This document shows, one piece after another, positions 3,321 to 34,701 of a DNA stretch of 64,000 nt. This stretch comes from a virus: positions 32,001 through 96,000 of IMG/VR virus record IMGVR_UViG_3300027793_000055; one strand, given 5' to 3'. Position 1 is the stretch's first letter. Every line of letters starts with the position of its first letter. Made by a program: the position numbers and the translations under genes. The notes under the pieces are model-generated. The model did not search any database. It saw only the letters and a list, made by a program, of their open reading frames with translations, and was not told the DNA's origin.

Positions 3321-4778
3321 TCAAACACCAGTTGTTGGATGTGAATCTGGCGGTGTAAAGTTTGTTGTATATCTTGCGATACCTTGAGTCAGCCTAAGAT
3401 CATCAATATAACCATTTAAATATCTCAAAGCACTATTGCTTCTATGAAAACCAACATAAAAAGTTGTAGGAAGTGTAGCTATAGAAGAAGCTAAACTTGA
3501 GCCTCTTAATATACCATTAATAAATAATCTCACAGTTGTTCCATCATTAGAAAGTGCAACATGGTTCCAACTGTTTAGAGAAACAAGACCGGCAGCCGTT
3601 GCGAATTGCCATATTGGAGTTTGAGAGTTTCCAAATCCATTTGCTGTCATACTTCCATTTAAATTTACAGCTAATTGAACTCTATTGATATTTGATGTTG
3701 TGGTGCCATTATAAAATAAACCACTACCATTTGTAGCATCTCCATAAGAATTAAGATAAAACCAGGTTTCTATAGTATAAGAGCCGCTTAGTTTAAGGTT
3801 TGAATTACTAAGAGAAAGATAATCGTTAGTTCCGTCAAAATAAGCACTACCAGTGATTGCTGTTACGATATTAGCAAGTGGCGACACGTCGCTGATTTGC
3901 GGTGAACCACGTCCTATTGTTATTGAATAGTTATTAGGTCCGTTGTCCTTGAATATACGTCCCTGGCAAGTTAATAATATCGTTCCAGAAATAGATTGTA
4001 GTGCAGTGGTTGGCGGGGAGAATGCAGACGTATAAACAGAAGTTCCACAAATTCTTAGATTTGATAGGTGGCAGTCGGTTCTGCCATAGTCGCCTCCGTT
4101 GGGATTTGGTGTTGAACCACCAATTGTGATGCTTTCTGCTGTTCCGTTATTTAACGGTGTATTAAATACTTCTTGTAACTCCAATACTCCATCTACAAAT
4201 ATTCTGTAAGTTGTACCTTGTTTGACAAAGGCTAGATGGTGCCAGTTGCCGTCATCTACGCGAGAAACAGAAAAGAATGACTTAATATTGACCGGCCATC
4301 CCGTACCGTGATACACGGTAAAATAAAACTTACCAACGTTGGTTCCAGACTCCATCACGCTGGCCACCCAAGAATTTCCTGTATCAGAATGCATGTCTGA
4401 TTTTGCCGCTATAGTAGCTCGCTGGGAATTAGAACTGCCACGGAACCATGTTTCAAATGTCCAATTTGTTCCTATATTTCCACCAACGATAGCGCCGTTG
4501 ACTAGTAGATAGTTTTTCCTTATGCTATCGGCTTGTGATGGAAAATAAATGCTCCATTTACCATCTTCTTTATTGTGCGGACTAAATGAGTCAATCCGGG
4601 TATTACCAAACCTTGAGATGGCAAGATTATTAACACTGCTGTCAACAAAAGTTGTGCTATTGTTAGCCCCGGCTGCTTTCAATAATAGTGATACATTTGA
4701 AAAATAAGGATCGGTTGTTGGAATATTTGTAGGCTCACTGCCAGTTGTTTGATTTTCTGCTTCACTATAAAAAAACAT
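3321..4778 (-). CDS. MFFY-leader protein with two LamG/concanavalin-like domains
   Basis: DPYFSNVSLLL, WTFETW, WHHLAFVK, WNHVAL, GYIDDLRLTQGIARYTTNFTPP. Confidence 0.85.
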   Translation of the reverse strand: MFFYSEAENQTTGSEPTNIPTTDPYFSNVSLLLKAAGANNSTTFVDSSVNNLAISRFGNTRIDSFSPHNKEDGKWSIYFPSQADSIRKNYLLVNGAIVGGNIGTNWTFETWFRGSSNSQRATIAAKSDMHSDTGNSWVASVMESGTNVGKFYFTVYHGTGWPVNIKSFFSVSRVDDGNWHHLAFVKQGTTYRIFVDGVLELQEVFNTPLNNGTAESITIGGSTPNPNGGDYGRTDCHLSNLRICGTSVYTSAFSPPTTALQSISGTILLTCQGRIFKDNGPNNYSITIGRGSPQISDVSPLANIVTAITGSAYFDGTNDYLSLSNSNLKLSGSYTIETWFYLNSYGDATNGSGLFYNGTTTSNINRVQLAVNLNGSMTANGFGNSQTPIWQFATAAGLVSLNSWNHVALSNDGTTVRLFINGILRGSSLASSIATLPTTFYVGFHRSNSALRYLNGYIDDLRLTQGIARYTTNFTPPDSHPTTGV

Positions 4779-4815
4779 CTTTTATTTCTCCTGTCATTGA
4801 AGATAAATATAGATA

Positions 4816-4823
4816 TAAATAGT
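4816..4823 (-). promoter_or_regulatory. ACTATTTA motif of LamG cassette
   Basis: Between the terminator repeat and GACAGGAG RBS. Confidence 0.6.
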
Positions 4824-4836
4824 TTTAGAATAATTC

Positions 4837-4869
4837 AAAAACAAAACCCACCATATTTCAGGTGGGTTT
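4837..4869 (-). terminator. Intrinsic terminator, 33-bp direct repeat copy 2
   Basis: Identical to 3269-3301. Confidence 0.85.
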
Positions 4870-4892
4870 GTGTTGGTAATTATACTTACTGT

Positions 4893-6197
4893 TTATTCTT
4901 CATTGAATACATAAGCAAGACCAGACTCATTGCCGCTTGTTGATTTTTCATCTCTCCACGCACCAACGATAACACGATCACCGGCAGAATTCATTGCAAC
5001 TGAATATCCAAACTGATCATCATTGGTTGCCAAACTTCCACTTAGGATAGGCTGCTGCTGTGTCCAGCCGGTTGTTCCACTAACAAATATATAAGCAAGA
5101 CCAGAAGAACCAACTCCACCACTACCAGTTATTTCGTCTAGACGAGCACCAACAATGATACGATCACCGGCAGAATTCATTGCAACAGACCAACCAAACC
5201 AATCATCAGTATTATTTGCAAAAGTTCCGCTTATGATGGGTTGTTGTGACCAACCACCAGTTCCACTTACAAATACATAAGCAAGACCTTCGTTGTAATT
5301 AGTTGCTTGGCTAACTCTTTCATCCAAATATGCACCAACAACAACACGATCACCAGCAGAATTCATCGCAACTGAATTACCAAATTGTTCATTGGAACTA
5401 GTTGCCAAGGTGCCACTTAGAACATGCTGCTGAGTCCAGCCACCAGTTCCACTTACAAATATATAGGCAAGACCTTCTGAGAGAGGGCCTCCGCTTCTTT
5501 CATCTTGCCCAGCACCAACGATAACACGATCACCAGCTGAATTCATTGCAACTGAATTACCGAATTGATCAGTTGAATTAACTGCTAAAGTTCCACTTAA
5601 TATATGTTGCTCTACCCATCCACTTGCTCCACTGACATATATATAAGCAAGTCCTTCTGAAATCTGGCCACCACTTCTTTCATCCAATTGGGCACCAACA
5701 ATAATACGATCACCTACGGAATTCATTGCAACTGCACTACCGAATTGATCACTAGTAGTTGCAAAAGTTCCGGTTGGGATAAGTTGTTGTGACCAACCAC
5801 CGGCTCCGCTGACGAATACATAAGCAAGACCTTGTGTGATGCTGGCTGGTCCCAATTCATCTAGCCGAGCACCAATAACAACACGATCACCAGCAGAATT
5901 CATTGCAACTGAATTGCCAAAATTATCATTTAAATCTATTGCAAAACTTCCACTTAGAACAATTTGTTCATTCCACCCACCGGTTCCACTAACATATATA
6001 TAAGCAAGCCCAGAAGAACCACTTCCGCCACTTCTTTCATCTTGCCACGCACCAACGATAACACGATCACCGGCAGAATTCATTGCAACTGAATATCCAA
6101 AATTGTCAGTTAAATCGGTTGCCAAAGTACCAGATAAAATCTGCTTTTCTTTCCAATTTTTTATTATATTTTCAATTATTTCTCTATAAAAAAACAT
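4893..6197 (-). CDS. MFFY-leader protein, 7-bladed FG-GAP beta-propeller
   Basis: Seven repeats of FG-x-SVAMNSAGDR-x-(I/V)-VGA...GLAY(I/V)(Y/F). Confidence 0.85.
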   Translation of the reverse strand: MFFYREIIENIIKNWKEKQILSGTLATDLTDNFGYSVAMNSAGDRVIVGAWQDERSGGSGSSGLAYIYVSGTGGWNEQIVLSGSFAIDLNDNFGNSVAMNSAGDRVVIGARLDELGPASITQGLAYVFVSGAGGWSQQLIPTGTFATTSDQFGSAVAMNSVGDRIIVGAQLDERSGGQISEGLAYIYVSGASGWVEQHILSGTLAVNSTDQFGNSVAMNSAGDRVIVGAGQDERSGGPLSEGLAYIFVSGTGGWTQQHVLSGTLATSSNEQFGNSVAMNSAGDRVVVGAYLDERVSQATNYNEGLAYVFVSGTGGWSQQPIISGTFANNTDDWFGWSVAMNSAGDRIIVGARLDEITGSGGVGSSGLAYIFVSGTTGWTQQQPILSGSLATNDDQFGYSVAMNSAGDRVIVGAWRDEKSTSGNESGLAYVFNEE

Positions 6198-6235
6198 CTT
6201 TTGTATCCCATCCTTTACTAGCTTATTAGTAAGTG

Positions 6236-6243
6236 TAAATAGT
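6236..6243 (-). promoter_or_regulatory. ACTATTTA motif of FG-GAP cassette
   Basis: Downstream of terminator copy 3. Confidence 0.6.
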
Positions 6244-6258
6244 TTTGTAATAGTTTAA

Positions 6259-6291
6259 AAAAACAAAACCCACCATATTTCAGGTGGGTTT
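6259..6291 (-). terminator. Intrinsic terminator, 33-bp direct repeat copy 3
   Basis: Identical to 3269-3301. Confidence 0.85.
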
Positions 6292-6310
6292 AAAAAATTA
6301 TTATCTTCTA

Positions 6311-6410
6311 TCAAGCACCAGCTACTTTTAACAATAACGATACACTTATAAAATATGTATCGGGTATGACTACTGATTAAATTGGGTCTGCTGCTTCACT
6401 ATGAATGCAC
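6311..6410 (-). pseudogene. Remnant of an MFFY-LamG cassette gene
   Basis: Translates SEAADPI*SVVIPDTYFISVSLLLKVAGA*, matching the N-terminus of 3321..4778 (38/50 nt by eye), joined to the same stop/3' flank. Confidence 0.75.
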
Positions 6411-6416
6411 CTAAAT

Positions 6417-7082
6417 TTAGGCAATTTCATATCTAATAATTACAATACCAGATGCTCCAGCACCACCATTTTTACTATAGTATCGATGCCCCCATCGATC
6501 TCGTTCTCCACCGCCACCACCAGCGCCAGTATTTGCAATTCCAGGGAATCCAAATGAAGCTAGGCCACCACGACCACCGCCGCCAAGACCACCATTAGCA
6601 TTGCCACCAGCACCACCACCACCAGCATAATATTTTAAAGTTCCATCTATAGATGATTGTAAACCATTAATACCACCACTTGCGCCTACGCCGTTGATCT
6701 GATTCCTCGCTGAACCTTTAAAGGCACCGCCAGCGGCAGTAATATTAAAAGCCGATGATGGATTGCCAGAAGTTACAGAAAATCCACCAACAATTATCGG
6801 ATAAGATTGAGCAGCTAAAATTATAGAGCCGCTAATCATTTGACCGGCATCGCCACCATTACCATCATACTTACCAAGAATTCCACCAACAGACCCCTCA
6901 AAACCTCTACCACCACCGCCGCCGCCGCCAATAATCAAATATTCAACTAATCCCGAATATTCAATTGTTAAAGTACCATTTTGTAAAAATCTATGAACTC
7001 TGTAGGTTTTTCCATCAAGTGAAAATTGTTCAGTTATTCCACCACTACCTTCTAAAAATTCTGCTTCGCCATAAAAAAACAT
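6417..7082 (-). CDS. MFFY-leader glycine-rich virion protein
   Basis: YRVHRF, VEYLIIGGGGGGG, YYAGGGGAG, ANTGAGGGGG, GASGIVIIRY. Confidence 0.8.
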   Translation of the reverse strand: MFFYGEAEFLEGSGGITEQFSLDGKTYRVHRFLQNGTLTIEYSGLVEYLIIGGGGGGGRGFEGSVGGILGKYDGNGGDAGQMISGSIILAAQSYPIIVGGFSVTSGNPSSAFNITAAGGAFKGSARNQINGVGASGGINGLQSSIDGTLKYYAGGGGAGGNANGGLGGGGRGGLASFGFPGIANTGAGGGGGERDRWGHRYYSKNGGAGASGIVIIRYEIA

Positions 7083-7120
7083 ATTTAGTGTCTCCTGTCG
7101 TCCAACGACAAATACAGATA

Positions 7121-7128
7121 TAAATAGT
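7121..7128 (-). promoter_or_regulatory. ACTATTTA motif of Gly-rich cassette
   Basis: Context AAAACTATTTATATCT-x-TATTT shared with the 4816 site; GACAGGAG RBS. Confidence 0.6.
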
Positions 7129-7140
7129 TTTAAAATTTAT

Positions 7141-7169
7141 AAAACAAAACCCGCCATTTCTGGCGGGTT
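7141..7169 (-). terminator. Terminator after major capsid gene (variant of the repeat)
   Basis: AACCCGCCA-GAAA-TGGCGGGTT-TTGTTTT. Confidence 0.85.
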
Positions 7170-7196
7170 CTGCTAGAATATTAGTCTAATCTGTTA

Positions 7197-8915
7197 TCAG
7201 CCCAAGAGATCTTGAACAACAACTAGACCGAACATATCTGGACGTACCATCTTCTTAGCGTAACGGGTCATAACGCCTTTACGTGGTACGAAGTCTTCGG
7301 TACCAAAGATGGTTGGTGTGACTTGGAGTGGTACGTATGGAGCGTAGACATATCCGCTTTCGAGGAATTGTGTACCACGACGACCAACTAGCAACAAGTT
7401 ACGTGGGAAGTATGGGTCAACCATAACATCCCATTTCTTGCTGAGTGAACCAACTTTAACTGCACCGGCTGTGCCCTTGGCTTCATCTGGAACAACACCT
7501 GAAGCACGGAAGCCAGCAGTCATTTCGAGGATACTGGCAACTTCTGGTGAAGTTACGATAAAGTTAGCACCACCACGTAATGTTTTACGGTGGATTTGAG
7601 CACTTAGATCATTAACGGTTTCGAGTAGTGTTTCGTACCACATTGAAACGTTACCGGTAAAGTCTGCACCAAGTAGATCTTCATTTGCTGAAGCACTGAT
7701 TGGAGCACCAGTTGCTTTGTTGACAAAGCGACCTGGACGACGTGACCAGTGATAAACACCGGCTGTAGCGCCTTTAACGAGGTCTTCTAGGACTTCTTGG
7801 TCGATTTCAAGAGCGATGTGCTCGCTCATGATGCTTGTCAATTCGACTTCGGCGTCGAGATTGTGGTAAGCATTTAGATCTTGACCGAGTTCTGGTGTCC
7901 ACTTGACTTTGAGTTTTTTGGTTTTGGCACTAACTGAAACTGAATCAATTTTTACATCGATTTCTGGAATTTCAGAACTACCTTCAAGACCCCAAAGTTG
8001 TTGTGCTAATACAGAACCTAGAGCACCACCAACACCTAGATTATCATCTATTGGGAAGGTTATAGATTTAGTACCACTTGTTAATTCAGTTTGTAAAGCA
8101 CCAAGAACAGCTGCACTGTTTGCTTTAAATACTAAACGCAAATGAGTATAAGTATCACCACCAACATCGGCACCGCTAGCATCGCACTTAGCAGTTAAAC
8201 GACGTACTTGTGTACCATTTGTGACTGCAGTTGTAACTTTGATAGCAACTAGATTGCTCTTGTTTAGTTTTTGGCCACCAACTTCTAGTGAAGCTACTGG
8301 AACAACAACAGCAATAACACCGTCTGAACCTGAAACTAGATCTGGATCGAAACGTAGAGCACGATCAAGTGCTGGATCAGCACCAACTAATTGACCACCA
8401 CCAAGTACCGAGGTCAATGAGGCAGTTACTGAACCGGTTGGTGAGCTATAACCGTTGTTTAAGCTGTAGAATGATTTTTCGAGGTTAACACCAGTTAAAT
8501 CAACGCCGCCTGTGATTTGGCTAGCAACACGACCACCACCAAATACTGAATCATTTGCATCTAGACCTAAACGGCTTCCGCTGACTTGGAAGTCAAGGAA
8601 GAAGATTAGACCGCTTGGTAGACTCATTGGTTGTACTGAAACAAGTTCATTGGCAATCAATGAACCGAATACACGGCGAACGATTGGGAATGCAACAGCT
8701 GCGAAACCTTCAACGTCACCAGCACTCATTGCACTACTTTCTTTGAGTAGTTGTTTGGCTTGGTTTTCCAATAGAACGGCCATACCATTCTTTTGGCTCT
8801 CATCACGAAGACCTTCTAATAGACCGGTCTTTTCCCATTTTGCACGTAGAGCGGCACCTTCTTTTGTAAGGTCACGGTCAACGATATTCTCTGTTAAACG
8901 CTTTAAAATTGACAT
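7197..8915 (-). CDS. gp23: Major capsid protein (gp23-like) with central insertion
   Basis: AFPIVRRVF, VSVQPMSLPSGLIFFLDF, LK..WTPELGQDL.AYH, GYVYAPYVPL, TRYAKKMVRP. Confidence 0.95.
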   Translation of the reverse strand: MSILKRLTENIVDRDLTKEGAALRAKWEKTGLLEGLRDESQKNGMAVLLENQAKQLLKESSAMSAGDVEGFAAVAFPIVRRVFGSLIANELVSVQPMSLPSGLIFFLDFQVSGSRLGLDANDSVFGGGRVASQITGGVDLTGVNLEKSFYSLNNGYSSPTGSVTASLTSVLGGGQLVGADPALDRALRFDPDLVSGSDGVIAVVVPVASLEVGGQKLNKSNLVAIKVTTAVTNGTQVRRLTAKCDASGADVGGDTYTHLRLVFKANSAAVLGALQTELTSGTKSITFPIDDNLGVGGALGSVLAQQLWGLEGSSEIPEIDVKIDSVSVSAKTKKLKVKWTPELGQDLNAYHNLDAEVELTSIMSEHIALEIDQEVLEDLVKGATAGVYHWSRRPGRFVNKATGAPISASANEDLLGADFTGNVSMWYETLLETVNDLSAQIHRKTLRGGANFIVTSPEVASILEMTAGFRASGVVPDEAKGTAGAVKVGSLSKKWDVMVDPYFPRNLLLVGRRGTQFLESGYVYAPYVPLQVTPTIFGTEDFVPRKGVMTRYAKKMVRPDMFGLVVVQDLLG

Positions 8916-8945
8916 TGTAATTCTCCTTAAATGAATTAATAAATA

Positions 8946-10301: not shown

Positions 10302-10335
10302 TCTTGTCTCCCAAATAAATATAGAAATTCAATAT

Positions 10336-10351
10336 AACTAGTATACTAGTT
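10336..10351. promoter_or_regulatory. Perfect 16-bp palindrome overlapping ACTAGTTA motif
   Basis: AACTAGTATACTAGTT upstream of the scaffold-MCP pair. Confidence 0.5.
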
Positions 10352-10365
10352 GTATAAAATGCCTT

Positions 10366-10920
10366 TTAACGCTTGTTAATCATACATTTTATTAAATTGC
10401 TGTCACCGGATGCATCTTCAAGAGCTTGACCAATTATAATACCGGTTAAATCTCTTTTAAAAACACTCCATTTTTTCTTCTTGACTGCCATTCCGTGGCC
10501 TGTTATATTACTAGTACAGATAAAATCACCACGTTTAACTTCACCAGTTACTAAAACTAATTCTGCTCCAAAAACAACCGGTTCACTTTTGTTGTCTTTA
10601 GTAACACCCATAACAAGTATATCTTCTTCTTTTCTGCAGGGTTCTAGACCATTTTCACCCCAAACAAGCACAGTGCCATCACTATACATAGCAATTGATG
10701 GCGTTGAGAGGCCATATTCGAATATAGCACCAACTGTTGTTTGTACAGCATATATATCTTTCCAACGAAATGTAGGACTACCTAGATCTGTAATACCATT
10801 TCCATTAGGTGATAAATTTCCAGTAACCGCAACAGAACCGCTAAAACTAACAGTTCCATTATCTAATATTCTATGGATTACAGTGGTGCCTTTATATACG
10901 GCAAGACCTTTTGCTGCCAT
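10366..10920 (-). CDS. Short fibre-like protein with chaperone/autoprotease-like C-terminus
   Basis: DLGSPTFRWKDIY fibre motif; GDFICTS...G.GM, IIGQALED; N-terminus shared with 11035..14553. Confidence 0.5.
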   Translation of the reverse strand: MAAKGLAVYKGTTVIHRILDNGTVSFSGSVAVTGNLSPNGNGITDLGSPTFRWKDIYAVQTTVGAIFEYGLSTPSIAMYSDGTVLVWGENGLEPCRKEEDILVMGVTKDNKSEPVVFGAELVLVTGEVKRGDFICTSNITGHGMAVKKKKWSVFKRDLTGIIIGQALEDASGDSNLIKCMINKR

Positions 10921-10978
10921 TATTAACCTCTACAATATTATAAATATAGCTATAACACAAAAAAAGCCAATTTTAATT

Positions 10979-11009
10979 AAAAAAAAGAAGGGCTGACCAG
11001 CAGCCCTTC
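10979..11009 (-). terminator. Intrinsic terminator
   Basis: GAAGGGCTG/CAGCCCTTC stem followed by T8 on minus strand. Confidence 0.8.
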
Positions 11010-11034
11010 CTAAACCAACCTAAATCAGTTTAAA

Positions 11035-14000
11035 TCAGCCCATATAGAATGGAGCATCAAACCATTCACCATCTTGACGGAAGTACCAGCACTTGCCACG
11101 TGGGAAAGTACCTGTTGGATCGTCACTTACATCGGTGAGATAGAACATATCACCATCTTGTGCTGTACGGGCGGCAGCTTGTACACGTGTCATTCTGGTT
11201 GAGACAGCGCCTTGTGATACTTGCATATCACCGGTTGAAACTGTCAAACCACCAGCTACTGTTGCGCCACCAGTGACACTCAAACCAGCACTAGCTGAGA
11301 GTTGAGCGGCTGATAGTGAACCGGCGATACTAACTGAATCTTTTAGAGAAACAGTTACAACGCCTGCTGCACTTGCAACAGCGATATTGCTTGAACTGAC
11401 AATCGAGAATGCACCACCAAATGGATCAACAGACATACCGTTGACACTAAATGATGCACTATTGATTTGTGCTTGTAGACCAGCTTCAGCAGCGGTTGCA
11501 CGTTGGATTTCAGAAACTAAGTTGCCACTTAGTGTACTGATATCTGCACCAATATTTGTGACAGCAGCTAATAGAGCATTATCATTGGTTAGATCGATGC
11601 TGTTAACAAAGTCAACAACTTCTTTAAATGTATCGAGATCAACACTTGAGCCTGATAGAATTGCATCAATTCTACCTTTTTCAGTGTTAATTGCTGATTG
11701 TAAACCAGCTTCAGCGCCTTCAGCACGGGTTTTTTCTGCTGCAATTGCTGTAGCTAATGAACCTGATACTGAATCAAGATTACTTTGTACGAGTGCTTCT
11801 GCTGTTGCTGCTCTAGATGCTTCAGCAGCTAGTGCAGTTGCAAAAGAACTTGATAGTGAAGAATTAGCACTTGTTTGAGCCGAATCAAGACTATCAATAT
11901 AACCCTTTAGTGAGCCAGATGCTGAATCTAGGTTACTTTGTATTAATCCTTCTGCTGCTGTTGCTCTGGCAATTTCTGCAGCCAATGCTGAAGAAAGTGA
12001 ACTTGAAAGAGCTGATGTATCACCAGATGCGCCAGATTGAATTGCGTCAATAGCAGCTTTCAATGAACCTGAAACACTGTCCAAATTTGACTGTACAGCT
12101 GCATCACCCGCTATTCTAGCAGCTATTTCTGCTGCTAACGAACTGGAAACAGCACCAGATAGATCTGTTACTGCTGCAGCACGATCAGTAATTTCTTGTA
12201 CAAGAGCACCACTAATAGCGGCAACTCTTAATGTCAAGTCTTGTGCAGCACTTCCTGAACCATCCAAGAAAGCAGCGATTTCTTGAATACTGTTCAATGA
12301 AGAAGTGATTGTTGCTAGTGTTGCACTATCACCAACTATTGCATTAACAGTTGTTTCTAGTGAGCCAACACGAGTATTAAATGAACTAGAAAGTGAATTT
12401 CTAGCAGTTGTTTGAGCGCCTAATGCAGCATCAATACCAGCAAAGTGACCTAATGAACTGGTTACTGTACCAGACATTGTGTAATTTACTGGAACATGTG
12501 AAACGAATTGGCTTCCTGCATTATCCAAGAAATCATAAACAACACCACTACCAGTATCTAATGCTCTGGCAGTTAGAATGCCATTGCTTGCTCTACTAAA
12601 TGCTAGAGTTGTGTGAGATACAGAGTCAATCTTATATCTTGCTGTACCGGTTGTTGGACCAATCTTGTATACTGAAGCACCGCCTTGACTTGCTACAGTT
12701 ATTGCTCTAAATTGGGTGTTAACTATGCCCAAGTATGAAGTTGATGTACTGCCACCAATTGAACCGTTGGTAACAACACCACCCATTGTGCGGTCAATAT
12801 CATAAACACGGCAACCATCAATTTCACCAATGGTCATTGTTGGACCAATTACTGATGCAAATGTTGAGTTGTGTGCTTTAAGTGTTAATGAGCCGAAAGA
12901 TGGTACTGTGGTACTTGCTCCAAATGGAACAAAGCCGCAGTATGTTCTTGAACCTGAATCAGCATTACCGATTCTGGATGATTCAACTTCTAGAACAACC
13001 GCTGGTGCGCGTGCTGATGTGACAGTGTTGTCATGAATCATTACTACGCCGCCGAGGATGGCTGCATTATCAACTGAAACATAGAACTGACCGAAGTTTG
13101 AATCCCAATTATAGTTTGCACCACCATTTTCGAATTCAAGTGATGTTCTACCGGTTACTGTAACAACGTTCGCTGTTGGATCTGATTCAAGACCGCCACC
13201 TGCATCACCAGCGATTTCAAAACTCATTTGAGCAGAGAAGCCGGTCCATGGTGCTGGATATTGCGCCTTAAATGCTTCTAGATTTGATGCTGGGAAGTCT
13301 GCCTTCTTAACATCCATCTTAACGGTACCGGCGATTCTAGCGCCATTACCAACTAGGGCAACACGGGCACGCTTAAATCCTAGTACAACATCTTCTGCAT
13401 ATGTACCAGGAGCTAGTTTAAAGATTAGTTTTTCAGTAACGAATTTTTCAACATTAGCATTGTATGTTGTATTCGAAGAATTACCTAATGACTGAACTTG
13501 TGAATAAGCGTAGTTGATTGTTCTGAATGGTTTTAATAGTGTACCATTACCAACTGCGTCTAAACCACCAACAGGGTCAACGTGTACTACGTTACCATTA
13601 TATGCTTCTAGAGCATCTAATCTTACATCTAGTGCATCAATTGAACTTGATAGTGCTTGATCTGCTGCAATACGTGCAGAAGCTTCGGCACTAATAGCAC
13701 CAGATAGAGAGCCGGAAACTGAATCTAGGTTACTTTGAACCTGTGCTTCAGCAGCGGTTGCTCTGGTAACTTCAGCAGCTAGTGCTGAAGAAAGCGAACT
13801 TGAAACTTCACCGTCTCTTAAATCAATATAGGACTTTAGTGAACTTGAAAGTGCTGAAGTATCACCAGAAGCACCTGATTGAATTGCGTCAATAGCTGCT
13901 TTTAATGAACTTGAAACATTATTCAAATTTGTTTGGACTGCTGCATCGCCAGAAACACGATCAGTTGCTTCTTGTACCAAAGCACCACTGATACGGCTTA

Positions 14001-14553
14001 CTTCGGTACTCAAGTCAGCAACTAGAGTTACTGGATTGCCATCACCGTCTAGATATTCAGCTAGATTTTGAATGGTTGTTAATGCAGCAGAAATGCTGCC
14101 TGTATCACCAATCAATGTATTAACTGTTGTTTCTAGTGTGCCAACACGACCGGTCAAAGATGAAACGGCTGTGTTATTTGAAGCTGTATAAGCATTTAAT
14201 GCTGATGCAGCTGCATTAGCAACTGCAGTATCGCCAGCTTCTCTTGCTGCAGCTTCTGCACTATCTTGTGCATCAATATATGATTTTAGCGAACTTGAAA
14301 GAGCCGCCTCGCCATTTGCTGCTTCGTTTTTTAATTCAACTAAAATACCACCTAGTGTGGTATTTGAGAATTCACCGCCAACATTACCAACTAGAATATT
14401 GTTGGCTGATGCGGTTAGTTGACCGGTTACGTTAATGTTACCACTAACTGTTACTGCTGCTGGATTTACAGCGGTACCGAGTTCAACTCTACCATCTTGC
14501 ATTAATTTGTGGACTACTGCGGAGCCACTAAATACTGCTAAACCTTTTTTCAT
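11035..14553 (-). CDS. Long coiled-coil fibre with central beta-helix-like domain
   Basis: AE-x-x-RATAAE / QSNLDSVSGSL repeats; VHVDPVGG.DAVGNGT..KPFRTI...LAPGTY motif. Confidence 0.7.
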   Translation of the reverse strand: MKKGLAVFSGSAVVHKLMQDGRVELGTAVNPAAVTVSGNINVTGQLTASANNILVGNVGGEFSNTTLGGILVELKNEAANGEAALSSSLKSYIDAQDSAEAAAREAGDTAVANAAASALNAYTASNNTAVSSLTGRVGTLETTVNTLIGDTGSISAALTTIQNLAEYLDGDGNPVTLVADLSTEVSRISGALVQEATDRVSGDAAVQTNLNNVSSSLKAAIDAIQSGASGDTSALSSSLKSYIDLRDGEVSSSLSSALAAEVTRATAAEAQVQSNLDSVSGSLSGAISAEASARIAADQALSSSIDALDVRLDALEAYNGNVVHVDPVGGLDAVGNGTLLKPFRTINYAYSQVQSLGNSSNTTYNANVEKFVTEKLIFKLAPGTYAEDVVLGFKRARVALVGNGARIAGTVKMDVKKADFPASNLEAFKAQYPAPWTGFSAQMSFEIAGDAGGGLESDPTANVVTVTGRTSLEFENGGANYNWDSNFGQFYVSVDNAAILGGVVMIHDNTVTSARAPAVVLEVESSRIGNADSGSRTYCGFVPFGASTTVPSFGSLTLKAHNSTFASVIGPTMTIGEIDGCRVYDIDRTMGGVVTNGSIGGSTSTSYLGIVNTQFRAITVASQGGASVYKIGPTTGTARYKIDSVSHTTLAFSRASNGILTARALDTGSGVVYDFLDNAGSQFVSHVPVNYTMSGTVTSSLGHFAGIDAALGAQTTARNSLSSSFNTRVGSLETTVNAIVGDSATLATITSSLNSIQEIAAFLDGSGSAAQDLTLRVAAISGALVQEITDRAAAVTDLSGAVSSSLAAEIAARIAGDAAVQSNLDSVSGSLKAAIDAIQSGASGDTSALSSSLSSALAAEIARATAAEGLIQSNLDSASGSLKGYIDSLDSAQTSANSSLSSSFATALAAEASRAATAEALVQSNLDSVSGSLATAIAAEKTRAEGAEAGLQSAINTEKGRIDAILSGSSVDLDTFKEVVDFVNSIDLTNDNALLAAVTNIGADISTLSGNLVSEIQRATAAEAGLQAQINSASFSVNGMSVDPFGGAFSIVSSSNIAVASAAGVVTVSLKDSVSIAGSLSAAQLSASAGLSVTGGATVAGGLTVSTGDMQVSQGAVSTRMTRVQAAARTAQDGDMFYLTDVSDDPTGTFPRGKCWYFRQDGEWFDAPFYMG

Positions 14554-14691
14554 ATTTTTAAATCTCCTAAATAAGTTAAAGATCTTTTATATTGTACCAG
14601 GCCCAATTATAAAAGTTTCGATTATATATAATTAGTTTCAAAATTTTTTAAAAATCTTAAGTAGTCTCTCTGTTTTTATAAATCCTCGTCG

Positions 14692-24089: not shown

Positions 24090-24096
24090 TTAAAGT

Positions 24097-24309: not shown

Positions 24310-24673
24310 TTTTCCACCTCTCTTCCCTATCTTCAACATACTGTATGTAGCATTCCTTACAGCAGTCAAATTTTAAAATATATAGCTCATCTTCTGCTTT
24401 AAGTATGTACTTATCGCAGCAAGAGCATTTTTTATCACTCTTCTTGTTAACTAGTTTTTTTGAAATTAAAAATCCATCTTTTTCTATTTTATCTTCATTT
24501 TCTTCAAGTTTAAATAGCTTTTGTGCATTTTCTTTTGCTTGTTCTTGATATTCTTTCTCTTTTTCTGGTGTCCAATCCTGTCTTGGATTCTTGATTGCTT
24601 CTTCGCCATACTGCTTTTTAATAGCTTGTTCTAGCTTACCAATATATTCTATACTTTTTTTAGGTTCCATCAC
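24281..24673 (-). CDS. Hypothetical protein with two Cys pairs
   Basis: CSCC...CCKEC. Confidence 0.55.
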   Translation of the reverse strand: MMEPKKSIEYIGKLEQAIKKQYGEEAIKNPRQDWTPEKEKEYQEQAKENAQKLFKLEENEDKIEKDGFLISKKLVNKKSDKKCSCCDKYILKAEDELYILKFDCCKECYIQYVEDREERWKNGWRPTKTK

Positions 24674-25707: not shown

Positions 25708-25937
25708 TCTTGCACCGTGCCACCTTTCGCTTTTAAATAATTAATTACAAAGTTACTTGCTGCTTGTGAACCAATATATACCATACTCAATTGCATCCAC
25801 TGTTCACCAGTAATATAGCCAAGTGGTACACCAATTGTACCAATAAACCAAACAAGTAACTTTCTACTTATAATCTTCTGTAAACCTCTGTCAACGACAG
25901 CGTTTCTTATCATTAATTTTGTTTCATCTGACATCAT
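25704..25937 (-). CDS. Small two-TM holin-like protein
   Basis: SRKLLVW...WMQLSMVYIGSQ; start refined using GAGGTG RBS. Confidence 0.45.
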   Translation of the reverse strand: MMSDETKLMIRNAVVDRGLQKIISRKLLVWFIGTIGVPLGYITGEQWMQLSMVYIGSQAASNFVINYLKAKGGTVQE

Positions 25938-25945
25938 TAAGCACC

Positions 25946-28540: not shown

Positions 28541-29200
28541 TCAGAAATCCTTTAAAGTATTCAAAATCAAACTTGCTTTTTCTTTTTTTCTTTTAAAGCC
28601 CAAGTCATCTTCAAAAGCATAAAGATAATTTATAAGTTTCAGGCTATCTTTTTGATTTGTGATTCTTATTTGTGAATAAGAGGACTTTTGTTTTTTTACT
28701 CTTCTAATAGAATATTTAATATTTAAGTTTTTATATATATTTTCCAAAAAAGTCCAATCTTGTTCGTATGTACTTGTTGCTGTACACTGGACTGCTTTAC
28801 TGATATTATTAAAATAGAAGCAGCCATCACCATCCCAATATCCTCTTAACCAATAATTTTTTAAATTATCTGGTATTTTTTGTAAAATTTTATCCGCACT
28901 TGCATATGATTTTTTATCATAATCGTTATTTTTCAAAAACATTGAAAATTCTTTATTAGATATGTGGTAAACCATTTGCGGTTTCCAGTCTTCTCTATTG
29001 CGATATCTTATATTCCATTCTCCGGTATCTAGAAAAACTTTTCTTAAAGATTCTATATCCTCTTTAACACTCTCTAGAGAAATCATATTACCGCACATTG
29101 AGCCATCTGCCCATAGTAGACCGAGAATATAGCAAGTATATTCATTGATATTGTCTGTAAACAGATTGTTTTTAATATTATTAATTTTTTGTTTCGGCAT
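28541..29200 (-). CDS. Double-motif LAGLIDADG homing endonuclease
   Basis: YILGLLWADGSM and WLRGYWDGDGCF. Confidence 0.9.
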   Translation of the reverse strand: MPKQKINNIKNNLFTDNINEYTCYILGLLWADGSMCGNMISLESVKEDIESLRKVFLDTGEWNIRYRNREDWKPQMVYHISNKEFSMFLKNNDYDKKSYASADKILQKIPDNLKNYWLRGYWDGDGCFYFNNISKAVQCTATSTYEQDWTFLENIYKNLNIKYSIRRVKKQKSSYSQIRITNQKDSLKLINYLYAFEDDLGFKRKKEKASLILNTLKDF

Positions 29201-29221
29201 AGATCTCCTAGGTATTATTCA

Positions 29222-29229
29222 TAAATAGT
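29222..29229 (-). promoter_or_regulatory. ACTATTTA motif in loop of RBS-sequestering hairpin
   Basis: CTTCTAG...CTAGGAG pairing encloses the motif. Confidence 0.55.
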
Positions 29230-29251
29230 ATAACTAGAAGCAATTAATAAT

Positions 29252-29905
29252 TTATTTTTTAATCCAACCCTGTTCAATATACAATGGTAGCTCTTCTTCG
29301 TCAATCTCTTTTTCTTCTATGCTCATTTCTTGAACAACCTGAAATGTCTTGTGGATATCGCCAGCCATTACATAATCGTGACCAGTAAAAGCAGAAATAT
29401 CATGATCACCATGATCCATAACATATCCCATATCTGTTAGAACACCAGATACAGAGCCGTGATAAAGAGCAATATTGATCTTTGATGGATCACTAATTTT
29501 CTGCCAATTTCCTTCATCAAAAATAGAAAGAACATTAAGAGTAATTTGTTCACTAATAGATACTTCACCTGAATCTTTTAAAAGATGAAGTTGGTTGTGT
29601 TGTAATGCTTGTACAATTGGTGTAATTGCATCCTGACGACCGCCATTTTTAAGGTTACCGTCGTGATTACCCAATAAGACATATGTGGGTGCAATATCTG
29701 CCAGATTCTTAAGGAATTCTGTTGCAAGTTCAAAGAATTCTGGACTTAATTGTGTTTTGGTATGTGCAATATCACCACAATGAACAATATAATCTACTTT
29801 TTGTTCACGTAGCTTGCTATAAATTTGTGAGAAAATCTCACGATATTCTTTATGAAATTTTAGGTTTCTTATGTGGGTGTCCGATAGATGGCAGATCTTA
29901 ATCAT
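29252..29905 (-). CDS. sbcD: SbcD/Mre11 nuclease, N-terminal fragment
   Basis: HLSDTH, GDIAH, GNHD, YHG, GDIHK metallophosphoesterase motifs. Confidence 0.9.
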   Translation of the reverse strand: MIKICHLSDTHIRNLKFHKEYREIFSQIYSKLREQKVDYIVHCGDIAHTKTQLSPEFFELATEFLKNLADIAPTYVLLGNHDGNLKNGGRQDAITPIVQALQHNQLHLLKDSGEVSISEQITLNVLSIFDEGNWQKISDPSKINIALYHGSVSGVLTDMGYVMDHGDHDISAFTGHDYVMAGDIHKTFQVVQEMSIEEKEIDEEELPLYIEQGWIKK

Positions 29906-30605
29906 CTTTTCTCCATATTTTATTATTTACAATATTCGAAATATTTGTGGCACAAGTATCAAAAATTAATGCTATATCTTTTAGCATCATTCCTTCTTTC
30001 GCCAATCTTCTTATTTCTTCTACTTTTTCCCAATTCAATTTAGAATGAGGGTTTTTTTCACCTTTTTTGCCATTACTGATTTTTATTTTTGTTTCTTCGC
30101 TTCTCTTACCTGTTGAATAAATTCCTTTTTTACCTTTATTCCAAGGAATTTGTCCTTTTTTAAATTTTGTTTTTATTTTATTTTTATGTTCGTCTGTTAG
30201 ATTTTTACCTTTATTCCAAGGATCCTTACCGAACATTCCATTATTTTCTACTACTTTCCCTTCTGAAATTATCTTTTTTGTTTCTTCGCTATGTTTTCCA
30301 TAAGAACCACCACCTTTTAGATTAAAACCTTTATCTAAATTTCTTGTTTCATAAAATATTATGAATCTATCTTCTTCTTCATCTAATTCTTTTTTGGAAT
30401 AACATTCTTTTAATATTTCCCACTCAAAATTTTCAATTCCATATTTTTTTATGGCGCTGTGAAAATAGTCATATTTAGGATTTTTACTTGCGTGTTTATG
30501 TTCGGAAACTCTTCTTGCTAAATGTTTAACGGTTTGTCCTATATAAAGTCTTCCGTCTATTTTTAAAGTTGCTTTATAAATTATTCCATATATTAATTTG
30601 CTCAT
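29898..30605 (-). CDS. GIY-YIG homing endonuclease with NUMOD3 repeats and C-terminal HTH
   Basis: GIIY...YIGQT, HSEETK, PWNKGK x2. Confidence 0.9.
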   Translation of the reverse strand: MSKLIYGIIYKATLKIDGRLYIGQTVKHLARRVSEHKHASKNPKYDYFHSAIKKYGIENFEWEILKECYSKKELDEEEDRFIIFYETRNLDKGFNLKGGGSYGKHSEETKKIISEGKVVENNGMFGKDPWNKGKNLTDEHKNKIKTKFKKGQIPWNKGKKGIYSTGKRSEETKIKISNGKKGEKNPHSKLNWEKVEEIRRLAKEGMMLKDIALIFDTCATNISNIVNNKIWRKDD

Positions 30606-30624
30606 ATATCAGATACTCCTATAT

Positions 30625-30632
30625 TAATTAGT
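30625..30632 (-). promoter_or_regulatory. ACTAATTA motif inside hairpin overlapping the RBS
   Basis: AGATACT/AGTATCT inverted repeat covering part of AGGAG. Confidence 0.55.
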
Positions 30633-30662
30633 ATCTATCTGAAATATGTGCAATTTTATACA

Positions 30663-31601
30663 TTAAATCACCAACTTGAATGCTTTTTGAATAAACGAGT
30701 CTTGTGTCATTAGGGTTGCTCGTTTTTTACGACGTGAAAATTCAAGTGTTGACATTTCACCAACATCTTTATACCCCGTCACGTCTATCTTGTAAAGTTC
30801 TACATCATACGACATTAAACTACGAATAAGGTAGTTTGTCTTTCTCTCTGCATCTGGATCTAGTGCAATATAGATCGGAGTATCATGTTTTGTTATTTCC
30901 TGAAATAGTTTAGAATCTTCTCTAAGAGTTGAACCTAATATTGGTACGGCGTTGCCTGCTTTAATGGCATCAAATACTCCTTCGACCAATACAAGATCAC
31001 TTTTCCAGTCAATAAACAAATCATTAAAAATAATATCTTTGCTTGTTGCTGGATTCATATAATTGGGTCTTTCTCCTGTATATGAGCGGGCAATAAAATA
31101 ATTGCAATATCCTTCACGATTAAAAGAAGGTACAATTATTCTATTTTTGTACATACCTTCCTTGCAATAGCCAATTTTCCAGCGAACAATATCTTCTTTT
31201 TCTAGGCCACGCTGTTGTAGGTATTTTAAAGGTTCTCTAGAAGAAAATGGTAAATTGTTATTTGCTAATGAAATAAATTCTTTTGGTAAAGAAATATGAC
31301 TTTCTTCTATCTTCTTGGTTGGAAAAAGAATATCTACAAGTGATTGGCTGATTTCTACTTCACCAGTTAAAGTTTCCCAAGTATGTTTTTGAGAAAAATT
31401 ACCATATTTACGAACTAATCTGCTTAGATTTGTGCCTTTATAATTGCAAAGCCAACATTTAAATACATTTTTTTGAATATTGACAGAAAGTTTTTTCTTT
31501 TCACTTTTACACTTTGGGCAGTAAAAAAGTAATTCCCCACCTTGTCGGAGGGGATTACCTAAAATATCAACTAAGATCTGCTGTTTCTGTTCTTGTGACA
31601 T
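30663..31601 (-). CDS. dnaG: DNA primase (DnaG/gp61-like)
   Basis: CPKC..C..C zinc finger, RIIVP, LVEGVFDAI, ALDPDA TOPRIM. Confidence 0.88.
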   Translation of the reverse strand: MSQEQKQQILVDILGNPLRQGGELLFYCPKCKSEKKKLSVNIQKNVFKCWLCNYKGTNLSRLVRKYGNFSQKHTWETLTGEVEISQSLVDILFPTKKIEESHISLPKEFISLANNNLPFSSREPLKYLQQRGLEKEDIVRWKIGYCKEGMYKNRIIVPSFNREGYCNYFIARSYTGERPNYMNPATSKDIIFNDLFIDWKSDLVLVEGVFDAIKAGNAVPILGSTLREDSKLFQEITKHDTPIYIALDPDAERKTNYLIRSLMSYDVELYKIDVTGYKDVGEMSTLEFSRRKKRATLMTQDSFIQKAFKLVI

Positions 31602-31609
31602 ACCTTAAC

Positions 31610-31638
31610 AAACTACCACAGAAAGCGCGGGGTGTCAA
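31610..31638 (-). promoter_or_regulatory. Sigma70-type promoter with extended -10
   Basis: TTGACA-N17-TAGTTT with TG at -15/-14, 8 nt before the primase ATG. Confidence 0.7.
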
Positions 31639-31666
31639 GTAGTCGTGTGGGTTATTATATTAGTGT

Positions 31667-31993
31667 TTAGGCAGGAAATCCTCGACCTTCAATTTCTATT
31701 TCTAATTGGACACCACTTCCGGAAACTACCAAAGTATCAGTCAGATCTAAAAAACCACTATACGATAGAGTAAAACCTGCCGTTAATGGATCTCCAAAAA
31801 ATATTAAATTTGGGTTATCAATAGAAAAACCTGGATTACCAATACTGGCAATTGCCGTGAAGCCTTCGCCTTCCGGTACGTTGAGTGCTTGAACACTAAA
31901 AAAAACTGAAGAACCGGCATTTATTGTTGCTGTTGATGGTGTTATTACTAATTCAACCGGTTGCTGTGTTTCTATAGATCGATAAAAAAACAT
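31667..31993 (-). CDS. MFFY-leader small beta-sandwich (Ig-like) protein
   Basis: LVITPSTATI.AGSSV.FSVQ pattern. Confidence 0.6.
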   Translation of the reverse strand: MFFYRSIETQQPVELVITPSTATINAGSSVFFSVQALNVPEGEGFTAIASIGNPGFSIDNPNLIFFGDPLTAGFTLSYSGFLDLTDTLVVSGSGVQLEIEIEGRGFPA

Positions 31994-32010
31994 ATTATAT
32001 ACCCCATTTT
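31982..32010. repeat. 29-bp gene-junction repeat copy 1
   Basis: KWGI-stop-T-ATG-FFY junction; 28/29 identical to 32718-32746. Confidence 0.75.
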
Positions 32011-32729
32011 GTTGACAAGGCAGACACTAGTGCTGATTCGTTAGCCGGAACAGATGGATATACAACGAAATCATGTATAATACCATCAAAGTATCTATAT
32101 GCACTACTCCCTACGAACATTTTTGCTGCCGGAAATCCTCCGCTGGCACTTGTATTTTTTTCTGTATAGCTATTATTATTTAGTGCTATACCAACCTTAC
32201 CTGATTTTAATCTGGCACGTAATAATATTTTTGTCGCTAGCGGGATTGGAGTAGATGCACTATTTGGATAGTTATTTGCATCAGCATATGATATACTACC
32301 ACTAGTGTACAATAATAACCCAGCCCAACCAGAACTAGTTTGCCATATGCCACCATTTGTATATGCGCCTTCGCCGGCAAAATTAACACCCGTACCCGCA
32401 GTCTGTGATAGTGTAGAGTTAACAGTAACAACCGTCGCAACATACCATTCAGTATTGCTGCCACGGAAGTCTCGGTTAGCAATTTCCATAAAATCATTTC
32501 TTGCTATATCGGGATCTAAAGTGAATGTAACGCCTGCGGGACTACTACTATGTGTTGGTCGTTTGAAAGAACCAGGTTGTACAATAGAAGATGTTATAGT
32601 CCCGGTGCTGGCCCAACTGCTCACCGCTCCATTTGCAGTAGTAATAGTGGCGATATCGCTACTATCATAACGATAAGTATATCCTGTAGGCAATGGAGAT
32701 GGCGCACTTACTTGTCTATAAAAAAACAT
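31995..32729 (-). CDS. MFFY-leader LamG-like protein
   Basis: YRYDSSD..TIT...G.VSSW, FDGIIHDFVVY, C-terminal KWGI. Confidence 0.7.
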   Translation of the reverse strand: MFFYRQVSAPSPLPTGYTYRYDSSDIATITTANGAVSSWASTGTITSSIVQPGSFKRPTHSSSPAGVTFTLDPDIARNDFMEIANRDFRGSNTEWYVATVVTVNSTLSQTAGTGVNFAGEGAYTNGGIWQTSSGWAGLLLYTSGSISYADANNYPNSASTPIPLATKILLRARLKSGKVGIALNNNSYTEKNTSASGGFPAAKMFVGSSAYRYFDGIIHDFVVYPSVPANESALVSALSTKWGI

Positions 32730-32746
32730 ATTATATACTCCATTTT
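32718..32746. repeat. 29-bp gene-junction repeat copy 2
   Basis: KWSI-stop-T-ATG-FFY. Confidence 0.75.
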
Positions 32747-33486
32747 GCTTTTAGATAGTCGGTCCACAAAACTCTTCTATCATCTGCAAGATCATCAGAG
32801 AATACAACAATTTCGTGAATAGAGCCACTTAGACTTCCGGCTCCAGACCAGTTGCCTGCTATTTCTGTTTTCCAGCCAGACGACAAAAGTGTATTTCCTG
32901 CTGCGCGAGAAACAAAAGTTCCACCATTTACTGCGACAGAAACGGAAGTACCAGTTGCCTTGCCTTCTACCAATATTTTAGTATTTAAATTTACCCCTGC
33001 GGCAGAAATGGTTTTGTGAGTACCATCATATACATGTGCTTGTGCAACTCTTGTAGTACCGCTTAGTGCCAAATAAATGCCACCATATTGGGCAAAAGCA
33101 AATATTTGATGATTACTGTAAGCATTAACATCACTTCTTGTAATATTGGCTGGATTTACAATGGCAAACATATGCCAATTTGGAGTTGATAAATTTGGAG
33201 CCGTTGTTCCTAAACGCATATAGTAAGCAATATTACTACCACTAAAGTATCTAATTGAATTACTTGTTGCTTCATATATTGGAGCATTAGTAGTATTTCC
33301 TGCACCCGGTGTTGCACTTGAAGTATTGATACCGGTACTGGCCCAACTGATTACTTTATTTGGCACCCCGTTATGAGTTGTCGTGGTTATAGATGAGATA
33401 TCGGATGCATCAAATATATACCTTGCAGAATCACTTGGACGTTCTGGGCCGGCTAATAGATTTTCTCTATAAAAAAATATACCCAT
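32731..33486 (-). CDS. MGIFFY-leader LamG-like protein
   Basis: FDASDISSIT, GSIHEIVVF, YLKAKWSI; paralogue of 31995..32729. Confidence 0.7.
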   Translation of the reverse strand: MGIFFYRENLLAGPERPSDSARYIFDASDISSITTTTHNGVPNKVISWASTGINTSSATPGAGNTTNAPIYEATSNSIRYFSGSNIAYYMRLGTTAPNLSTPNWHMFAIVNPANITRSDVNAYSNHQIFAFAQYGGIYLALSGTTRVAQAHVYDGTHKTISAAGVNLNTKILVEGKATGTSVSVAVNGGTFVSRAAGNTLLSSGWKTEIAGNWSGAGSLSGSIHEIVVFSDDLADDRRVLWTDYLKAKWSI

Positions 33487-33615
33487 TTTTATTGCTTTTT
33501 ATTATATAGAATCAACTAATATAATTAGTTTTATTTTTTGTACTGTTCTTTTACTTCTACATTTTGGATAATAAAAAATGAAAATATACCATAATATTTT
33601 AGCATATTGTTTATT

Positions 33616-34425
33616 TTATAACGTTATAGCTTCTCTATAAACTTCAAACCGGTCAATACGAACTGGGGTAACCGGTTGAGATGAATGATATAATATTCCC
33701 ATATATCCAGCAGTTGCAGAACCTATATTGTCACCAGGATACGATGGATTGTTATACCAAGGAACATATGCACCAACTTTTGTTCTTTGTATATCAACTT
33801 GGTGTATTTGTGACCAAATGTCTGCTCCGCTTCCAGTAAATACGGTTATTCTGTCGGCATCTGGGAGTCCCATAACATCCATTCTTACTCTTGTCCATGT
33901 TGCATCTGGTATTGATAATAAACTTATAGCGTAAGCATTGCTATTATTTGCGGCGTCCAAAGAAGAGTTATAAGTGGAGACATTTTCATCTCTTGCGCAC
34001 CGAAGAACCAATTCTGGATTAGTAGCAGTTGTTGCATTTAACATTATGCGATATCCTTTTAAACGATGTGCAGTGAAGGTAGTAGCCCAAGTTTGAGCTG
34101 ATAATGATGAACTATTTTTAAAACTTATCACCCCTGTTGCATGCCGGCTGGTGCTAGACTGAGAATTATCAATTCGCATCAAGGCTCTCAATGAATATGT
34201 AAAACCATATGGATATCCAAGGGAACTTGTTAATAGTGAATTGTTAATTGGTAATAAACCTCCAATCGCGCTCGTGTTGTTGGCATTGGATTGAAAATTT
34301 CGAAACCATGTTCCAGAAGAAGTTATGGGGTTTGATAGAGTGCTATGTTGCACTGCAGTTCCACTAATACTTGTTGAATAAGCGTTTGCAGTGGTAGATA
34401 TTGTTGTCCAATCAATTTGTGCCAT
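33616..34425 (-). CDS. Beta-rich virion-type hypothetical protein
   Basis: MAQIDW start; ends GYMGI...IDRFEVYR; lectin-like composition. Confidence 0.55.
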   Translation of the reverse strand: MAQIDWTTISTTANAYSTSISGTAVQHSTLSNPITSSGTWFRNFQSNANNTSAIGGLLPINNSLLTSSLGYPYGFTYSLRALMRIDNSQSSTSRHATGVISFKNSSSLSAQTWATTFTAHRLKGYRIMLNATTATNPELVLRCARDENVSTYNSSLDAANNSNAYAISLLSIPDATWTRVRMDVMGLPDADRITVFTGSGADIWSQIHQVDIQRTKVGAYVPWYNNPSYPGDNIGSATAGYMGILYHSSQPVTPVRIDRFEVYREAITL

Positions 34426-34443
34426 TTTTACTTCCTTTATATA

Positions 34444-34701
34444 TTATATATTTGGCCAGGAGCCAGATTCAAATTCTTCTGCAAGCAACACCGAACCAGT
34501 AAAAGTTGGATAAACCAGAGATGCCGTGTTATAGGTTCCATTCCAAGTTGGTTGTTCAAACGCTTCTAAAATTAAAGCAGATTCTGTAAAAGTTGGATAA
34601 ACTAGCGATGCCGTGTTATAGGTTCCATTCCAAGTTGGTTGTTCAAATTCTTCGCTAAATAATAATTTTAAAAGATTTTGTCTATAAAAAAATAAACCCA
34701 T
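34444..34701 (-). CDS. MGLFFY-leader 85-aa repeat protein
   Basis: Two 29-aa repeats plus a partial third. Confidence 0.7.
   Translation of the reverse strand: MGLFFYRQNLLKLLFSEEFEQPTWNGTYNTASLVYPTFTESALILEAFEQPTWNGTYNTASLVYPTFTGSVLLAEEFESGSWPNI
34500..34647. repeat. 87-bp-period tandem repeat
   Basis: 34500-34560 is near-identical to 34587-34647. Confidence 0.9.

Follow-up and report, generated by a model that had tools for sequence, protein, structure and literature searches.

Phages of the K1-5/K1E/SP6 group, with hepta- and undecapeptides, and those of the KP32/KP34 and Menlow groups carry conserved N-terminal docking peptides on their secondary receptor-binding proteins (RBPs). The peptides of these branched RBP systems are 7–11 amino acids long, for example MALxxLV, and their partner is a T4gp10-like branching domain (PMC6872550). 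In T4 a 10-residue N-terminal signal, the capsid targeting sequence (CTS), brings diverse internal proteins into the capsid (PMC3012670, PMC9026906). Here we describe a shared N-terminus, MFFYxE (also MG[IL]FFY), on seven proteins encoded in a 64,000-nucleotide stretch of viral DNA (positions 32,001 to 96,000 of IMG/VR record IMGVR_UViG_3300027793_000055; the whole stretch is called the window below). From sequence comparisons, we give about an even chance to the interpretation that this leader is a portable N-terminal tag by which accessory adhesins dock on the virion. The docking-peptide principle is already known, and an earlier note on this stretch, which was not aware of any description of such a system, put the case too strongly in view of the published docking peptides and the T4 CTS. 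What differs here is the phage group, the unusually short tag and the broad range of payloads.

The FFY family resembles the branched RBPs in that a very short, group-specific N-terminal peptide with conserved hydrophobic residues is found, within one phage group, on binding proteins whose C-terminal parts are unrelated and swappable. However, the branched RBPs are trimeric tailspikes or depolymerases present at one to four per phage, whereas the FFY proteins are small lectin, Ig and propeller modules, up to seven in number, encoded in scattered, independent late cassettes of a T4-like myophage. No gp10-like domain was found among the baseplate and fibre proteins by Pfam, PHROGs and PDB sequence searches, for which these proteins are too divergent.

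The window belongs to an uncultivated virus of 187,750 bp (34% G+C). Its gene content, with a gp23-family capsid protein, a gp13-like neck protein, sheath, tube, portal and a long tail-fibre block, identifies it as a distant T4-type myophage. The closest cultured matches to the capsid protein are merely 34–47% identical (Microcystis, Rhodothermus and Flavobacterium phages). Public sequencing runs containing DNA of this phage come from 14 studies and are mostly labelled as freshwater metagenomes, with a few fungus metagenomes.

A shared leader on unrelated adhesion-type proteins

The seven open reading frames (ORFs) beginning M(G[IL])FFY that the earlier note had listed are all present, in two clusters (Table 1). 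All lie on the minus strand, and the positions the note gave as starts are therefore stop ends. A scan of the whole genome finds exactly these seven such starts, all of them inside the window. Five begin MFFY, compared with 0.019 expected from proteome Phe and Tyr frequencies in 227 called ORFs (Poisson P about 2e-11), and the next most common N-terminal tetrapeptide in these ORFs occurs three times. A chance-level frequency of FFY starts, which the note had named as one outcome that would overturn its proposal, is excluded by the five MFFY starts and two prefixed variants against about 0.02 expected.

The bodies behind the leader fall into unrelated families by all-against-all BLAST, and the payloads are adhesion or lectin-type folds, as had been proposed. 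Pfam recovers the two LamG domains of gene 1, seven FG-GAP repeats in gene 2 and the Gly_rich_2 domain of gene 3. The product of gene 6, called LamG-like from its sequence, is a ConA-like jelly roll in an AlphaFold2 model (predicted local distance difference test score, pLDDT, 84) and by Foldseek, where it matches, with some 11% identity, the lectin-like subdomain found in the binding domains of clostridial toxins. Gene 5, also called LamG-like, encodes a 29%-identical paralogue of this protein, and the repeat peptide of gene 7 does contain its repeat twice. The Ig-like assignment of gene 4 could not be confirmed, as there is no Pfam hit and the all-beta model has a single-sequence pLDDT of 52. 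In the gene 6 model leader residues 1–10 are disordered (pLDDT below 50), in contrast to the confidently modelled jelly roll.

The same leader is found in relatives of this phage. We compared 80 IMG/VR loci surrounding relatives of the capsid gene and added DNA-pattern scans, one with the exact pattern ATGTTTTTTTAYAGWGAA and one with a degenerate pattern (GGAG, spacer, ATG TTY TTY TAY NNN GAR). The gene order in the 80 loci is scaffold, capsid, a variable island, gp13-like, gp14-like, gp15-like and sheath, and in the nearer relatives the island between capsid and neck contains from zero to five genes starting MFFY[SRGA]E. The flank loci and scans together yield approximately 40 distinct MFFYxE proteins after removal of duplicates, with at least eight unrelated payload groups. 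Among them are proteins with one to three LamG domains, proteins in which LamG comes after one to four ASH/HYDIN-type Ig domains, FG-GAP propellers, glycine-rich proteins and several groups without a Pfam match. The leader is thus a portable module, kept by many related phages in front of payloads that have no common origin. The proteins range from 85 to 766 residues and are acidic (median isoelectric point 4.96). One further family from the degenerate scan, of 145 residues and beginning MFFYIEP, was rejected as a false positive since its Met is internal to a 323-residue ORF.

When the N-terminal 40 residues of 34 sequences are aligned, F2, F3 and Y4 show no variation and M1 and E6 reach at least 90%; the other columns, with a mean identity of 23%, are not conserved. 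As FFY was a requirement of the pattern scans, the invariance among those matches is partly built in. The capsid-flank sample, chosen by position, is unbiased in this respect, and there Glu6 is present in 21 of 21 FFY-started genes, alongside a few island genes with different or degenerate starts (for example MFFN and MLAFYR). A variable linker of 6–20 residues separates the hexapeptide from the first domain, which in LamG members opens at a recognisable D-P-Y-F-S-N-V-S-L-L.

FFY cassettes occupy at least four islands: between capsid and neck, between RuvC and primase (cluster 2 of the window), between two endolysin-like genes, and at approximately 133–138 kb of this genome. One orthologue is located among replication genes. 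The islands are hypervariable. In the capsid-neck island of Flavobacterium phage immuto there are other genes, none of which starts with FFY. The leader is also missing from five large or complete genomes of more distant relatives, ATGTTTTTTTAY being absent from four of the five and at control level in the fifth. In more distant relatives (L068 12408-14474, L070 11916-16810) the capsid-neck island contains large genes with signal-peptide-like starts (MKKLLL...), which indicates that the island is a general hotspot for accessory genes.

Exchange of N-termini and the proposed docking site

A search with the propeller protein found the same FG-GAP body behind three different N-termini: MFFYxE, M-x-I-F-P-G-F-x-G-x-I, or a stalk of about 125 residues starting MSYNPRIKN. 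All three join the body at one point, just ahead of W-x-x-Q-I-L-S-G-S. In two contigs the IFPGF form is ATGA-coupled directly behind a gene of the tail-fibre module (L182 10001-11311, L183 10001-11305). The preceding gene in L183 is a homologue of the 840-residue fibre of this phage, and LamG genes occur in the same fibre block; in L182 it encodes a 655-residue protein with an N-terminus like that of the 166-residue protein in the window (42028-42528). The MSYNPRIKN form (L185 1501-4171), in a phage of the FFY clade, is one of three adjacent paralogous small fibre-like genes just before RuvC, and its fibre-like scaffold ends S-D-G-S-G-S-W-x-I-I. Cluster 2 of the window directly follows RuvC. 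Exchange of the N-terminus on a constant binding body is the behaviour of a virion anchor, and it ties the payloads to the tail-fibre apparatus rather than the capsid.

If the leader is a docking tag, the free hydrophobic-aromatic hexapeptide and its variable, flexible linker would act as a disordered plug on a tether. With the plug seated in a conserved pocket of some virion protein, the accessory adhesin would be mounted, so that swappable lectin, Ig and propeller modules could be docked on one common site at the exterior of the virion. The cassette, consisting of terminator, late promoter motif, 5' hairpin, Shine-Dalgarno sequence (SD), leader and payload, is gained, lost and shuffled among the hypervariable islands. 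Both physical incorporation into the virion and the existence of a socket are matters that we infer. We tentatively entertain, as a rather doubtful extension, the possibility that MFFYxE is a universal outside plug of the T4-like virion. Any fold placed behind the tag and a short linker would then fit the same socket, particles would be mosaics of up to seven adhesins, and populations would re-equip themselves by gain and loss of cassettes. Sister lineages would have plug and socket pairs of their own, such as MxIFPGF.

Forced to choose, we lean towards an adaptor of the tail fibres or baseplate as the candidate socket. The earlier note had considered the capsid probable, for which we find no support. 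That view rested solely on the position of cluster 1 beside the capsid gene; cassettes are also found in three other islands, and sister bodies are encoded in the tail-fibre module. The Hoc-type capsid decoration proteins of T4-like phages are similar to the FFY proteins in being dispensable Ig-like or adhesion modules whose genes lie close to that of the capsid protein. Hoc attaches to the capsid by its C-terminal domain. However, the C-termini of the FFY proteins are unrelated, the shared part is the N-terminal hexapeptide only, and no conserved C-terminal capsid-binding domain was found.

The leader could alternatively be a counterpart of the T4 CTS, in which case the FFY proteins would be carried into the scaffolding core of the prohead, possibly cleaved after Glu6, and packaged inside the head. 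We regard this as quite unlikely. It would suit a T4-like phage with a gp23-type capsid protein, relatives that encode a prohead protease homologue, and the location of cluster 1 within the head gene block. The T4 signal also contains Tyr4 and Glu6, as does the FFY leader. Both belong to the T4 lineage, and both are peptides of 10 residues or fewer at the extreme N-terminus of unrelated, fast-evolving proteins, with an important aromatic residue at position 4; in T4, residues 4 and 7 of the 10-residue peptide matter most for targeting (PMC9026906). However, CTS cargo proteins are small, basic, packaged in the head and processed at L/I-x-E, whereas the FFY cargo is acidic, reaches 766 residues, has lectin, Ig and propeller folds of extracellular type and shows no consistent cleavage site after the leader. 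An I or L at P3 of a Glu (residues 8–11) occurs in only a minority. In addition, there are cluster 2 members with Ser or Gln at position 6, and homologous bodies elsewhere are carried on tail-fibre-type stalks.

The peptide could also be a recognition tag for a partner outside the virion, such as a phage chaperone, a glycosyltransferase or a step of targeting to the host envelope. Selection appears to act on the peptide (see below), as such a tag would require, and some cassettes lie beside lysis or replication genes and not structural genes. However, the leader resembles neither a signal peptide nor a lipobox, nothing connects it to enzymes of this kind, and attachment to the virion accounts better for the kinds of payload and for the swap with fibre-type anchors. 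We judge such a role to be very unlikely.

Were the docking interpretation true, this would be the shortest modular attachment signal so far proposed for a myophage. It would explain how abundant freshwater T4-like phages vary the adhesion of their particles with the core structural genes untouched, and would provide an easy way to display foreign proteins on these phages. It would also extend the docking-peptide logic of capsule-targeting podophages to lectin and Ig accessory modules, and lineage-specific tags may then be a general design rule.

Cassette structure and conservation of the leader

Each gene of cluster 1 is preceded by a 33-bp terminator hairpin, the motif ACTATTTA(T/C), a short 5' untranslated region (UTR) and GGAG. 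A promoter-like box, ACTAATTA, is located upstream of gene 7. The motif ACTATTTA is also found upstream of the sheath, gp13-like, portal-region and other structural genes, and is therefore of late type in the FFY genes as well. Most FFY genes are thus predicted to be late, independently transcribed units. Genes 4 and 5 have neither a promoter nor a hairpin of their own and start one base past the preceding stop codon, and both have kept MFFY.

A hairpin of 5–7 bp lies between the late motif and the SD in nearly all of 31 distinct UTRs from relatives (mean z −1.8). Its arms vary by genome and remain complementary (GTCAC/GTGAC, GCTGA/TCAGC, GGGTAA/TTACCC). Examples are found at positions 4779-4830, 6198-6250 and 7083-7135 of the window and in L083, L104, L106, L108, L113 and other FFY loci. 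This hairpin probably serves as a 5' stabiliser of late mRNAs.

Table 1. Positions in the window of the FFY genes, their 5' modules and the genes that border or interrupt the two clusters
Feature	Position	Strand	Description
FFY gene 1	3321-4778	-	MFFYSE, 16-aa Thr/Pro/Ser-rich linker, two LamG; 485 aa
FFY gene 2	4893-6197	-	MFFYRE, short helix-like segment, seven-bladed FG-GAP propeller; 434 aa
FFY gene 3	6417-7082	-	MFFYGE and glycine-rich domain (PF21722); 221 aa
FFY gene 4	31667-31993	-	MFFYRS and small all-beta body; 108 aa
FFY gene 5	31995-32729	-	MFFYRQ and jelly-roll body, paralogue of gene 6; 244 aa
FFY gene 6	32731-33486	-	MGIFFYRE and ConA-like jelly roll; 251 aa
FFY gene 7	34444-34701	-	MGLFFYRQ and a twice-repeated unit of about 27 aa; 85 aa
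5' module of gene 1	4779-4869	-	33-bp terminator hairpin 4837-4869, late motif ACTATTTA 4816-4823, 5' UTR with SD
5' module of gene 2	6198-6291	-	Terminator copy 6259-6291, late motif 6236-6243, UTR
5' module of gene 3	7083-7173	-	Variant terminator behind capsid gene, late motif 7121-7128, 8-bp 5' hairpin, SD
gp13-like neck protein	1941-3221	-	Downstream border of cluster 1
gp23-like major capsid protein	7197-8915	-	Upstream border of cluster 1
DNA primase	30663-31601	-	Downstream border of cluster 2
269-aa gene without leader	33616-34425	-	Inside cluster 2, downstream of gene 7
RuvC-like resolvase	34738-35253	-	Upstream border of cluster 2, end of tail-fibre module

Strain variation and turnover were followed in contigs from four public runs of four studies. 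The contigs break exactly at the ATGs of genes 1 and 2 (4778, 6197) and at the terminator repeats. One freshwater run contains a joint 7132->3276, in which all three cluster 1 cassettes are gone, and a joint 6202->4814, in which the propeller cassette is gone; the cassettes thus come and go in nature. In a strain variant, single-nucleotide polymorphisms are concentrated in linker codons 11–25 of gene 1, with none in the leader.

These features raise the alternative that the leader has no docking role and is simply the coding part at the end of a mobile 5' expression module, comprising late promoter, hairpin, SD and the first six codons. It would have been retained through capture of new bodies by recombination downstream of codon 6, and through a U-rich start that keeps the initiation region open. 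The promoter motif, hairpin, SD and leader do travel together and are near-identical within a genome, as in five cassettes of L023, and it is 31-mers spanning the SD and leader that break the assemblies at the ATGs. The leader codons are strongly biased, with Phe almost always TTT and codon 5 mostly AGT or AGA. The deletions and shuffling between repeats resemble the PeSL cassettes of T4-type phages, in which repeats of a terminator and an early sigma70-like promoter flank accessory genes (PMC2839356). In both systems terminator-promoter blocks flank non-essential genes in hyperplastic regions, and recombination adds or deletes genes. However, the PeSL promoters are early and sigma70-like and there is no shared coding leader, whereas the FFY cassettes have the late-type ACTATTTA and a repeat that reaches into the first six codons.

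There are several signs of selection on the peptide itself. Synonymous variants that retain FFY occur, with TTC in bona fide promoter-bearing cassettes (L117 and L121) and TAC several times. Position 5 accepts S, R, G, A, V, N, K, C or T, whereas positions 2–4 show no amino-acid change in the sampled cassettes. The MG[IL]FFY forms displace the motif by 6 nt, and the two forms are exchanged between orthologues, those of gene 6 starting MFFYRE, MGLFFYRQ or without a leader. The leader persists in genes 4 and 5, which lack promoter and hairpin, and it is missing from the most highly expressed late genes (capsid, sheath) and from gp13 and portal genes, which use the same promoter type. Other lineages substitute different hydrophobic N-termini rather than nothing. 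The leader thus probably acts as a peptide, and we consider an expression module alone to be an unlikely explanation. If FFY were merely the relic of such a module, it would still be a late-gene counterpart of PeSL cassette shuffling.

The invariant ATG-T7-A of most cassettes also suggested phase variation, in which the T7 run behind the ATG would serve as a slippage-prone on/off switch of adhesin genes. No indels were found at any of the three T runs in the contigs of the four public runs, although contigs hide rare variants. In addition, TTC interrupts the run in bona fide cassettes and no frameshifted cassette was observed among the relatives. Such a switch is barely credible.

Several points weigh against a docking tag. 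All 54 Phe codons of 27 tabulated leaders are TTT, compared with 78% in the genome, and Ser5 is always encoded by AGY and Arg5 almost always by AGA. This conservation of nucleotides exceeds what the peptide needs, so the identity is in part due to shared descent with the 5' expression module. A hexapeptide is short for a stable anchor, and the competition of seven strongly expressed proteins for one site is an assumption. The leader was found in no cultured relative, and at the nucleotide level no cultured phage matched. Finally, a candidate socket had to be dropped. In a tree of the major capsid protein, FFY genes go together with a long form of the gp14-like neck protein, extended at its C-terminus, and sister clade B2 has neither. 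However, a hidden Markov model search finds the same domain as a separate ORF in the FFY-less B2 phages; the correlation between FFY and long gp14 is therefore not specific.

The C-terminal domain of the gp14-like protein, approximately 60 residues long, is fused in the clade of this phage (window 1080-1931). The sister clade encodes it on its own, in a small ORF immediately behind a short gp14 (L005 ~3676-4000, L008 ~5512-6211, L010, L011). Clade A has an extra copy after gp14, and weak copies end big fibres of the head region.

Neighbouring genes

The 269-residue leaderless gene inside cluster 2 has a homologue at the same position in L169. A 184-residue protein (10366-10920) and a 1172-residue Ala/Ser-rich fibre (11035-14553) have a common N-terminus of about 25 residues, M-x-K-G-L-A-V-x-x-G-x-x-V-x-H, and the pair is kept in relatives. 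From its sequence this N-terminus seems to be another shared anchor module of this phage, longer than the FFY leader.

Two proteins of the tail module, of 446 (40668-42008) and 166 residues (42028-42528), have the same end motif, N-G-P-Y-Q-S-I-T-[IL]-V ... W. In L182 and L183 a similar motif closes the fibre proteins encoded ahead of the IFPGF propeller genes.

In several relatives (L019 2581-3171, L021 3856-4446, L025 11731-12321) the gene immediately following that of the capsid protein, where the FFY island borders on it, encodes a homologue of GIY-YIG-type homing endonucleases. The copy of this gene in the window is found at 29898-30605 and is approximately 28% identical to those of the relatives.

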